Shown in pieces: positions 14,529-16,898 of a DNA stretch of 39,408 nucleotides (positions are counted from its first letter, which is position 1; the number at the start of each line of letters is the position of its first letter). Below the pieces are notes generated by a model. It did not search any database, was not told where the DNA came from, and was given only the letters and a program-made list of their open reading frames with translations. The DNA comes from a virus: the UHGV virus genome UHGV-0070365; one strand, 5' to 3'. The position numbers were made by a program, and so were the translations under genes.

Positions 14529-15177
14529 TGGCAGCAAATACCGAAATATTTGGGTAGTTGGCGATCTGCACGGATGCTACACGAACCTGATGAAAAAACT
14601 GGAGACGATAGGATTCGACACCAAAAAAGACCTGCTTATCTCGGTTGGCGATTTGGTCGATCGCGGTACAGAGAACGTCGAATGTCTGGAATTAATCACA
14701 TTCCCCTGGTTCCGAGCTGTACGTGGAAACCATGAGCAAATGATGATTGATGGCTTATCAGAGCGTGGAAACGTCAATCACTGGCTGTTTAATGGCGGTG
14801 GCTGGTTCTTTAATCTCGATTACGACAAAGAAATTCTGGCTAAAGCTCTTGCCCATAAAGCAGATGAACTTCCGTTAATCATCGAGCTGGTGAGCAAAGA
14901 TAAAAAATATGTCATTTGCCACGCCGATTATCCTTGTAACGAATACGAGTTTGGAAAGTCAGTTGATCATCAGCAGGTAATCTGGAACCGCGAACGAATC
15001 AGCAACTCACAAGACGGGATCGTGAAAGAAATCAAAGGAGCGGACACGTTCATCTTTGGTCATACGCCAGCAGTGAAACCACTCAAGTTTGCCAACCAGA
15101 TGTATATCGATACCGGCGCAGTGTTCTGCGGAAACCTCACATTGATTCAGGTACAGGGAGAAGGCGCATGGGCATAA
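14506..15177 (+). CDS. ninI: Ser/Thr protein phosphatase (lambda PPase/NinI-like, 223 aa)
   Basis: GDLHG, GDLVDRG, GNHE metallophosphatase motifs. Confidence 0.9.
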
Positions 15178-15656
15178 GAGAACTAAACCTCACCAAAGAA
15201 CAGCACGAGTGGCTGAATGGCTGGCTTGAACTGTGGGGCGCATGGGTTTATTCAGGTCGTCTGGAAAAGCGTATGAGCAGCGTAATAGCGAAGTTCATGG
15301 AGAGCGTAGAGCCGGGAAGAGTTATGACAAGGCCAATGTGTAATGATGATGATGGAATGTTGATTTCTCAGGTCGTCGATTCCGTCATGTACATTGACAA
15401 GAAAGCCTTTGGCATCCTCCTCAGCTACTACGCCCACGGTTCTTCCAAGCACGCCATTGCATCTTACTATCATCGCGTCGCAAGACCTCGCAAGATGTTA
15501 TGCCGGGGCGGCGGGCGCATTCAAAAACCATCGCTCGCAACCTGTCGCCGGGAAGTTGACGAAATCCTCAATGCCTCGTTGTTTATGATTTATCCGGTTC
15601 TGGATAGTGCGTTTAAAAACCGGAAACGTGTAGAGAAAATTAAACATGTAGCATAG
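15168..15656 (+). CDS. Q: Late antiterminator Q, P22 gp23-like family (162 aa)
   Basis: …LELWGAWV… and …[20 protein letters not shown]… resemble P22 gp23 motifs; position upstream of lysis genes. Confidence 0.75.
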
Positions 15657-15659
15657 AAC

Positions 15660-15745
15660 GTGTTGACATCATTGAGCAAATGAGCAACACTATTCACATA
15701 AGCTGCCGTTAGTGACTCTTAAGTTGCAACGGTGGCTTTTTTTGT
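15660..15745 (+). promoter_or_regulatory. Candidate late promoter pR'/qut with short-transcript terminator (TTGACA at 15666-15671; ...GCAACGGTGGCTTTTTTT)
   Basis: -35-like hexamer immediately after Q and T-run about 60 nt downstream. Confidence 0.4.
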
Positions 15746-16574
15746 TTGCACAACAGGTAAGAGCATTCTCCTTTATGGGGCTTGGCTTAAATGCACCGAG
15801 TGCTCTTATCGTTGTGGCAGCACAACGATAGTTTTCGTCAGAGTTGGCGACTTTGCGGGTTTTTAGAAACTGACCACAAAGATAAATGCAAACGATGATT
15901 TGATGTTGATGGCGGCCTAAGAAACCAAAATCACGGGGTCTTCCGACTCCCCGCTACCAAATTCGGCGCACTGGCCCGGTGTGATTAATAATGGGCACCC
16001 ATTCAAATGTACCCTCGGCAGGTTCGATTCCTGACTAGACCCAGATGGCGACGGGGAGGGTCCAATTGAGTGGGTAACAACGGGCATGTCGCCTTAGTAA
16101 ATCCCTCAAGGGTGCGACGCATAGACCGGTACTAGCGTCGCCGTTAGCTCCACGAAACGGAGCGCACAACAGGTAAGAGTATTTGTAGAGTTCGACTCTC
16201 TACCGTGGGCTTTTTCCCGCGATGCGAGCCATAAATGCTCTTTCCGTTGTGCTGAATTAAGCGAATGCCGGAAGCAGAACCGGATCACCAAATGCGTACA
16301 GGCGTCATCGCCGCCCAGCAACAGCACAACCCAAACTGAGCCGTAGCCACTGGCTATCCTGAATTCATCAGTGATAGTTACGCTGCGGCCTTCTACACAT
16401 GATCTTCGTGAAAGCGGGTGGCAAGAGGCTGCGCTAACAACCCCCTGCCGTTTTGCCCGTGCATATCGGTCACGAACAAATCTGATTACTAAACACAGTA
16501 GCCTGGATTTGTTCTATCAGTAATCGACCTTATTCCTAATTAAATAGAGCAAATCCCCTTATTGGGGGTAAGAC

Positions 16575-16898
16575 ATGAAGATGCCAGAAAAACATGACCT
16601 GTTAGCCGCCATTCTCGCGGCAAAGGAACAAGGCATCGGGGCAATCCTTGCGTTTGCAATGGCGTACCTTCGCGGCAGATATAATGGCGGTGCGTTTACA
16701 AAAACAGTAATCGACGCAACGATGTGCGCCATTATCGCCTGGTTCATTCGTGACCTTCTCGACTTCGCCGGACTAAGTAGCAATCTCGCTTATATAACGA
16801 GCGTGTTCATCGGCTACATAGGTACTGACTCGATTGGTTCGCTTATCAAACGCTTCGCTGCTAAAAAAGCCGGAGTAGAAGATGGTGGAAATCAATAA
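16575..16898 (+). CDS. S: Holin S (class I, dual start MKM; 107 aa)
   Basis: [67 protein letters not shown]...; lambda S-like. Confidence 0.95.

Follow-up and report, generated by a model that had tools for sequence, protein, structure and literature searches.

A candidate phage RNA that combines an arm antisense to host tmRNA with a tmRNA-type tag reading frame

The spacer between the gene Q (15168–15656; PF06530, 87 bits) and the holin gene S (16575–16898; PF05106) of the virus genome UHGV-0070365, a stretch of 39,408 nt referred to here as the window, contains a tmRNA-like tag module at 15829–15996 with an arm antisense to the host transfer-messenger RNA (tmRNA, or SsrA). Together with SmpB, tmRNA forms the main bacterial pathway of ribosome rescue and quality control, which is a drug target and on which several phages depend. 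In our best reading, the module encodes a late-transcribed RNA of ~170 nt that would consist of two halves, a 5′ antisense arm and a 3′ domain of the tmRNA mRNA-like type. We propose that this RNA pairs with host tmRNA in such a way that the host's tag template is covered and a phage template is tethered in its place, a tag swap on which we are evenly divided. The module lies between the two copies of a repeat described by a first-pass annotation, which had overlooked it. All features reported below lie on the plus strand.

An arm complementary to host tmRNA

The arm (15829–15865) is made of three collinear blocks complementary to nt 68–106 of Escherichia coli ssrA, a target that comprises the 3′ strand of pseudoknot 1 (PK1), the A-rich leader, the resume codon, and tag codons 1–5. 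Block 1 (15829–39, UAGUUUUCGUC) is the exact reverse complement of ssrA nt 96–106, which contain tag codons 3–5; block 2 (15843–52, GUUGGCGACU) pairs with nt 86–95, resume codon included; and block 3 (15852–65, UUUGCGGGUUUUUA) pairs with nt 68–81, which we take to be the 3′ side of PK1 in the established E. coli tmRNA structure. The three blocks coincide with those that stay invariant within the phage family. Host nt 82–86 are bulged out. Over its first 130 nt, ssrA is conserved at 99% identity or more throughout the 5426 E. coli genomes.

The family to which the module belongs was gathered by pattern scans of public collections, followed by BLAST against phage records and complete E. coli genomes. 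Each of 71 distinct arms has its best antisense alignment on ssrA nt 68–106, with scores of 26–43 versus 12–19 for the sense strand. The arm of the window scores 42, versus 14.8 ± 2.2 for shuffled sequences (maximum 29; 0/2000). For all 111 arm/tag combinations, the match to host ssrA (mean 34.9) far exceeds that of the arm to the RNA's own resume and tag region (mean 13.8). The predicted arm–ssrA duplexes span 25–35 bp, that of the window having ~32 bp and −40.4 kcal/mol, and substitutions at paired arm positions are mostly wobble-preserving. The gap from the end of the duplex to the phage resume codon measures 21 nt in 80 of the 111 variants (range 19–24) and matches host nt 69–89. A shuffle test with RNAduplex gave a weaker result (z −3.6, with a single shuffle scoring better), since U runs can pair with A runs in ssrA; the alignment-based tests took its place. 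None of the other spacer modules is antisense to ssrA. Extended complementarity to a defined target, conserved in homologues and accompanied by substitutions that keep the pairing, marks the arm as a candidate trans-acting antisense element.

A conserved tag frame surrounded by pseudoknots

The arm is followed by a 22-nt linker (15866–15887) whose last letters, AUAAAU, put a U at position −5 and an A at −4 relative to the resume codon; on the sense strand the linker resembles the host sequence CCGCAAAAAAUAGUC. The tag frame GCA AAC GAU GAU UUG AUG UUG AUG GCG GCC UAA (15888–15920) encodes ANDDLMLMAA*, the same tag that is called by ARAGORN at relaxed thresholds. Like that of a tmRNA, this frame opens at a resume codon without initiation signal and ends in a stop codon. 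In family members ascertained without use of the tag, the first in-frame stop falls at codon 11 in all 48 distinct tag DNAs (25 distinct peptides), leaving 10 codons; frame 0 has no internal stop, and stops occur in 46 of the 48 in frame +1 and in 36 in frame +2. The peptides follow the pattern AN[DES]x-x-x-[LMK]-x-[AVS]-A.

The tag frame bears directly on the main rival explanation, in which the RNA is a plain antisense inhibitor or sponge whose arm blocks the host resume region and whose tag-like half is untranslated, stabilising the RNA or mimicking tmRNA toward S1, SmpB, or the ribosome. The arm–ssrA evidence applies equally to such an inhibitor, and the lack of a chargeable tRNA-like domain, described below, is in keeping with it. 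Synthetic anti-tmRNA oligonucleotides complementary to tmRNA do act in this way, suppressing release from stalled ribosomes in cell-free systems (PMC3384345). However, an untranslated decoy needs no open 10-codon frame with its stop at a fixed place, and this frame is kept in every variant across deeply diverged phage groups, with the tmRNA pattern AN[DE]..L.[AV]A, while the other two frames are full of stops. We therefore consider a pure inhibitor somewhat unlikely.

Downstream, the stop codon lies in the loop of a helix-5-like hairpin (15907–15933) in which UGAU pairs with AUCA around a weak inner GG/CC. Its outer helix has at least 4 bp in 97% of sequences by own-versus-cross comparison, with the variants CUGG/CCAG, CUGA/UCAG, UGGC/GCCA, and AAAG/CUUU; RNAalifold predicted no structure on the helix-5 segment. 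Two pseudoknots follow. PK2 (15934–15966) is formed by stems 15934–38/15949–53 and 15943–46/15963–66, of which 99% and 92.5% of cells are paired and three pairs per stem are changed on both sides. PK3 (15967–15996) is formed by stems 15967–71/15979–83 and 15974–77/15993–96 (93.5% and 75.6% paired), also with compensatory changes. In an alignment of 40 distinct copies, the covariation score of PK2 and PK3 together is 0.312, versus 0.156 for shuffles (0/500) and 0.07–0.14 for slid controls. A PK1-like fold is compatible with the sequence and shows little covariation. Pseudoknots and a helix-5-like hairpin thus surround the tag, as they do in tmRNA. Taken across the family, these comparisons show that the structured RNA is under selection and has an open tmRNA-type tag frame.

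The first-pass annotation had proposed covariance-model and tRNA scans of the region. At their thresholds these scans gave nothing: no Rfam family attains its gathering score in the spacer, and ARAGORN at default settings calls no tRNA or tmRNA there. The tmRNA-type lead came from a permissive E-value scan, in which tmRNA_permuted scored 22.9 bits (gathering score 47) and beta_tmRNA 16.2 bits (gathering score 84) at 15866–15968. The related locus L001 reached 25.2 and 21.8 bits (E = 4e-5), also under the gathering score.

In five loci (L242, L114, L254, L236, and L049), an open reading frame (ORF) for a homing endonuclease of the HNH(-AP2) type is inserted inside PK3, with a recoded PK3 copy upstream and a standard PK3 downstream. 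Homing endonucleases usually target conserved sequence, and the insertions suggest that PK3 DNA is a homing target.

Search for a linked tRNA-like domain

The elements of a tRNA-like domain, namely an open acceptor with G3:U70, a 3′ (A)CCA, a T-arm, and a P2 link, were not found together with the module. ARAGORN at default settings recognised none of the 51 family loci and none of six named phage records. The same search pattern hit ~35 unrelated IMG/VR viral contigs with genuine permuted tmRNAs, which default ARAGORN does recognise. These contigs (L010, L012, L015, L018, L019, L025, L026, and others) encode tags such as ANDERFALAA, ANDEQFALAA, and ANDDSFTPMALAA.

The window contains two conserved-stem cassettes, described further below, and neither holds G3:U70 or ACCA. 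The second (16164–16254), which we call TLD-1, has a T-arm (16185–16203; GUAGAG/UUCGACU/CUCUAC), an acceptor-like hairpin (16204–16221; CGUGGG-CUUUUU-CCCGCG), and a D-loop-like GAUGCGAG. In the window this T-arm cassette lies 337 nt downstream of the resume codon, and the cassette upstream of the tag has no T-arm. TLD-1 was rejected as an obligatory partner of the tag, since it is missing from most tag loci and occurs alone in many phages; it may be accessory to the tag RNA, the cassettes being separate from that RNA and flanking it.

TLD-1 raises the alternative of a self-contained, two-piece (permuted) tmRNA that would work without host tmRNA, TLD-1 being opened at its CUUUUU loop by RNase P, trimmed at the 3′ end, provided with CCA, charged, and used with the tag module. 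Consistent with this, TLD-1 precedes the tag in L001, L133, and L141, 78 nt before the resume codon, in the canonical permuted gene order, and ARAGORN at relaxed thresholds reads it as a permuted tRNA-like domain. The T-loop UUCGACU is shared without change by genuine permuted phage tmRNAs, and in some of these the intervening segment measures only 4 nt. Yet the acceptor-like hairpin is always closed, with C-G, U.G, or A.G at position 3:70 and never G3:U70 or ACCA; TLD-1 is present at only 12 of 97 well-flanked tag loci and stands alone in many lambda-like phages; default ARAGORN and the Rfam gathering thresholds fail on all family loci; and the antisense arm is left unexplained. We regard a two-piece tmRNA as quite unlikely.

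Other candidate parts were rejected. A partner strand that would make GGGGCUU a tRNA-like domain was searched for and dismissed. GUUUUCG as an acceptor 5′ strand with CGAAAAC after a T-arm fails on the lack of an upstream T-arm in L001 or L270. PK3 as an acceptor mimic in the style of turnip yellow mosaic virus has no G3:U70. Unit 'Z' and the B stems with NCCA at their end have a CCA that varies from locus to locus, and in a cassette ending in CAGGUCCACCA this sequence is consumed by the cassette's own stem. As judged by these searches, the conserved unit is a tag domain without a chargeable tRNA-like domain.

Proposed mechanism

In the proposed tag swap, the phage RNA would pair with host tmRNA over a duplex of ~32 bp in which the host tag template is masked. 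The phage resume codon would thereby be placed ~21–22 nt from the junction, like the host's own distance (nt 69–89), and ribosomes rescued by host Ala-tmRNA–SmpB would then continue translation on the phage template. The rescued chains would carry (A)ANDDLMLMAA at their C terminus in place of (A)ANDENYALAA; rescue itself would go on, but with a different fate for the tagged products. The tag frame is probably translated, because it is conserved, and host Ala-tmRNA–SmpB would supply the tRNA-like domain, because this is the only translation route that our analysis could see. Expression is expected on Q read-through, late in infection, because the RNA lies downstream of tR′ in the window.

Several points weigh against a tag swap. 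The position downstream of tR′ makes expression of the window RNA dependent on Q read-through. An intermolecular helix of 32 bp beside the resume codon may preclude loading of the template into the ribosome, and we know of no precedent for a tag template provided in trans by base pairing outside the P2 and acceptor helices. The arm itself may be closed: block 3 could in part be a conserved strand that pairs within the RNA's own PK1-like fold (CUUUGCGG with CCACAAAG), and the arm may be kept shut by intramolecular pairing of the PK1 type or by cis partners of block 1, such as GCGAAAUC in L001, GAACGAAAAG in Ackermannviridae, and the loop ACGAAAC of module X. The sampled hosts probably all share the same ssrA stretch. 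The case is computational throughout, and the function of the RNA is deduced from sequence.

Module X (16047–16163) lies downstream of the tag module and ends in a hairpin, GCUCC-ACGAAAC-GGAGC, at 16147–63. The stem of this hairpin covaries (GUCC/GGAC, GCCAC/GUGGC) while the loop ACGAAAC is constant in the window, L001, L004, L022, L120, and L123. The loop resembles host tag codons 3–5 (ACGAAAAC) and is complementary to arm block 1 (GUUUUCGU), so it could mask the antisense arm in cis. Strands upstream of the arm pair with it likewise, GCGAAAUCUGG in L001 and GAACGAAAAGCUGUUUG in Ackermannviridae.

Distribution and genomic context

By BLAST, 472 phage records carry the module, as do 670 of 5426 complete E. 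coli genomes (~12%), there mostly on P1-like plasmids; plasmids account for 568 of the 719 E. coli matches. The phages include lambdoid and P22-like phages (e.g. HK620), P1, P7, Ackermannviridae, N4-like phages (Pollock, FSL SP-058), and T1-like Drexlerviridae. The records examined contain no annotation of the module as an RNA gene. That a small RNA which would hybridise with tmRNA and replace its tag template is present in many enterobacterial phages (P1, HK620, lambda relatives, Ackermannviridae, N4-like, and T1-like) is, in our view, plausible if just short of probable.

In P1 and P7 the module lies between dmt and tRNA genes. In P1 (MH445380; L265, 2490–2680), P7, and P1-like plasmids such as pCREC455-3 (L004, 650–830), it encodes the tag ANDDLMMVAA, sits just after a terminator downstream of dmt, and has an array of conserved-stem cassettes and tRNA genes behind it. 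The module heads phage tRNA clusters with tRNA-Arg(UCU), Met/Ile(CAU), Ser, Thr, and others, and in these clusters tRNA-Ala is never next to it. Several members have a sigma-70-type promoter directly before the module, e.g. TTGACA-17-TAGATT. In L270 (Salmonella phage CRW-SP2, ~1270–1340), a tRNA-like sequence, GGUGGGG...GAGUGGUUCGAAUCCACUCCCCCGCCA, stands immediately before the promoter of the module; it combines a U3.G70 pair with an 'anticodon' loop of only 3 nt and is not called by ARAGORN. In L267 (Klebsiella phage P01, Ackermannviridae; 2756–2970), the depositors annotated a noncoding RNA, 'STnc100', ~1.2 kb downstream of the tag module.

Conserved-stem cassettes on either side of the module

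The repeat described earlier is real (15748–15767 versus 16164–16183, 20 nt, 95% identity), with the second copy starting at 16164 and not at about 16157 as first placed. The partner strands are equally genuine (15801–16 versus 16236–51, 16 nt, 88% identity), and each pair of repeat and partner forms a long stem. What repeats is a conserved-stem cassette, present in two copies, whose stem encloses a variable RNA cargo; its form is xxxxAGGUAAGAGCAUU - cargo - AGUGCUCUUUCCxxxx, with a bulged A in the stem. A census of related loci gave more than 35 different cargo sequences. Compensatory changes occur in the outer and inner parts of the stem, and the inner hexamer has 4.26 of 6 positions paired on average, versus 3.26 with hexamers permuted among cassettes. 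Both cassettes fold far better than shuffled sequences, cassette 1 with −29.8 kcal/mol (z −4.96) and cassette 2 with −39.9 kcal/mol (z −7.04), none of 200 shuffles being as good in either case. Lambda (J02459; L125, 390–462) has one cassette directly after tR′, at ~44790–44862, and since it is the same stem in the same place, we take the cassette stem to be a conserved module and not a chance repeat. The lambda cassette overlaps orf-64 as annotated, and a B-stem domain (GUUGUGCUG with CAGCACAAC) comes next; to our knowledge no function has been described for this stretch.

Cassette 1 (15748–15818) holds the cargo UUCUCCUUUAU-GGGGCUU-GGCUUAAAUGCACC, which, judged by eye, resembles the acceptor and D-loop region of a permuted tmRNA with T-arm and ACCA lost. 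It is an independent module, because the same cargo recurs 781 nt downstream of the tag in P1-like contigs. Another cassette cargo, at about +1070 to +1264 from the resume codon in L046, L084, L096, L111, L009, and L122, ends in ...UACAGGUCCACCA, the very sequence found at the 3′ end of genuine permuted tmRNAs (CAGGUCCACCA), and this cassette co-occurs with the GGGGCUU cassette in P1-like arrays. The cassette stems were also considered as attC or integron-like sites and rejected, as they show neither a fit to the RYYYAAC/GTTRRRY cores nor conservation of these cores.

Three smaller features complete the set. At 15806–15831, an 'empty' B stem forms a 10-bp hairpin, UAUCGUUGUG-GCAG-CACAACGAUA. 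The piece at 16002–16046 resembles a degenerate tRNA 3′ half, with T-loop GGUUCGAUUCC at 16021–31; it folds no better than shuffles (z +1.3) and occurs only in close relatives. A lambda-derived B domain (16246–16330, z −2.3) has a stem of GUUGUGCUG with CAGCACAAC that encloses two small hairpins.

Organization of the Q–S spacer

Only short, overlapping ORFs are found between Q and S, in agreement with the earlier view that the spacer holds no convincing ORF. The spacer is a mosaic of a phage 21-type leader, an insert, and lambda sequence, the last of which (16236–16574) is 97% identical to lambda 44847–45185. The insert between qut/tR′ and the lambda part is present at full length in only 39 E. 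coli genomes. After Q, a putative late promoter pR′ (15663–15693) has TTGACA at 15663–68 and a possible −10 element, CACTAT, at 15688–93, with a 19-nt spacer; it was read off the sequence at the place expected after Q, was not called by a consensus scan, and is therefore weak. The qut/tR′ leader terminator (15699–15745) consists of a hairpin at 15700–15738 followed by U7, is ~97% identical to the phage 21-type qut/tR′ annotated in Sf6, and folds with −20.2 kcal/mol (z −3.4). About 120 nt upstream of S, at 16420–16455, a hairpin (GGCAAGAGG...CCCCCUGCC then GUUUU) conserved with lambda resembles a weak intrinsic terminator within the late leader; the terminator scan did not flag it. The annotated 'boundary sequences' of CUS-3 were considered and set aside as merely the conserved Q-end and S-upstream flanks.

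The earlier suggestion that the late transcript contains structured RNAs, tRNA-like ones among them, holds up. Both T-loop-like motifs that it pointed to are present (GGTTCGATTCC at 16021–31 and GAGTTCGACTCTC at 16188–16200), the tRNA-like character being borne out by the T-arm and closed acceptor-like hairpin of cassette 2 and by the piece at 16002–16046. The accompanying idea of Q-utilisation or antitermination structures, or of generic late-leader small RNAs, did not survive. It draws on the location between pR′/tR′ and the lysis genes and on the hairpin at 15806–15831, which is followed by UUUUCG and was flagged as terminator-like. However, qut/tR′ is a separate homologous stretch; the repeats and the tag module both lie downstream of it and occur also in phages without Q, the tag module being found in P1, Ackermannviridae, N4-like, and T1-like phages. 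This distribution largely refutes the idea, which is almost certainly wrong.

The Q–S gap is a known slot for morons, and the mosaic structure allows a further explanation, namely that the insert is decaying tRNA and tmRNA debris without function, in which the repeat stems are boundaries that promote recombination. The make-up of the spacer is compatible with this, Sf6 has tRNA genes in the same slot, cassette 1 and 16002–16046 look degenerate, and the number of cargo sequences suggests shuffling. Against it stand the compensatory changes in PK2, PK3, and the cassette stems, the intact frame in all variants, an arm conserved with wobble-preserving changes across temperate and virulent lineages, and the targeting of PK3 by a homing endonuclease. 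We consider functionless debris very unlikely.

Discussion

The module shares with tmRNA, and specifically with the permuted form of Betaproteobacteria (RF01850/RF04321), the resume context (U)AAAU|GCA AAC GA, a 10-codon tag that starts with AND and ends in AA or VA, and a hairpin loop that holds the stop codon and precedes H-type pseudoknots. A tRNA-like cassette also stands before the tag in L001-type loci, as in permuted tmRNA. Unlike tmRNA, the phage module has no G3:U70 acceptor stem or ACCA, and a linked T-arm is usually absent; it scores 22–25 bits versus thresholds of 47 and 84; and its arm is antisense to another tmRNA, a feature without parallel among known tmRNAs.

Synthetic anti-ssrA oligonucleotides, used in ribosome display and cell-free translation, have in common with the phage arm the complementarity to tmRNA and the expected effect, a block of tmRNA action. 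The phage arm differs in being natural and gapped, with three blocks, in reaching the PK1 3′ strand, and in its fusion to a tag template that would replace the host's. In ribosome display, the standard anti-ssrA oligonucleotide presumably covers the same stretch, including GTAGTTTTCGTCGTTTGCGACT. Another phage-borne partial tmRNA is known from mycobacteriophage DS6A, which has a fragment comprising only the tRNA-like domain, and a similar molecule inhibits host tmRNA (PMC4131195, PMC11915505). The two are reversed in what they keep: DS6A retains the tRNA-like domain without a tag, whereas the phage module described here retains the tag without a tRNA-like domain and would act by base pairing, not by SmpB titration. 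Slot and transcription context are shared with lambdoid Q–S morons and phage tRNA clusters (tRNA-Asn and tRNA-Thr of Sf6/phage 21; the P1 tRNAs), but the module is not a tRNA and has no anticodon arm. We found no description of this phage RNA in the searchable full-text literature, to which the P1 genome paper did not belong.

The RNA is unannotated in the textbook phages P1 and HK620 and in ~12% of complete E. coli genomes. The finding bears on the annotation of phage tRNA clusters and lambdoid Q–S morons and exposes a blind spot of ARAGORN and Rfam. If the proposed pairing is correct, the RNA would be the first natural antisense regulator of trans-translation in the literature searched and, if its tag is used, the first tag template delivered in trans. 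Trans-translation would then keep recycling ribosomes while writing a tag chosen by the phage, a new mode of host hijacking, and phages may in this way block or re-program bacterial ribosome rescue.

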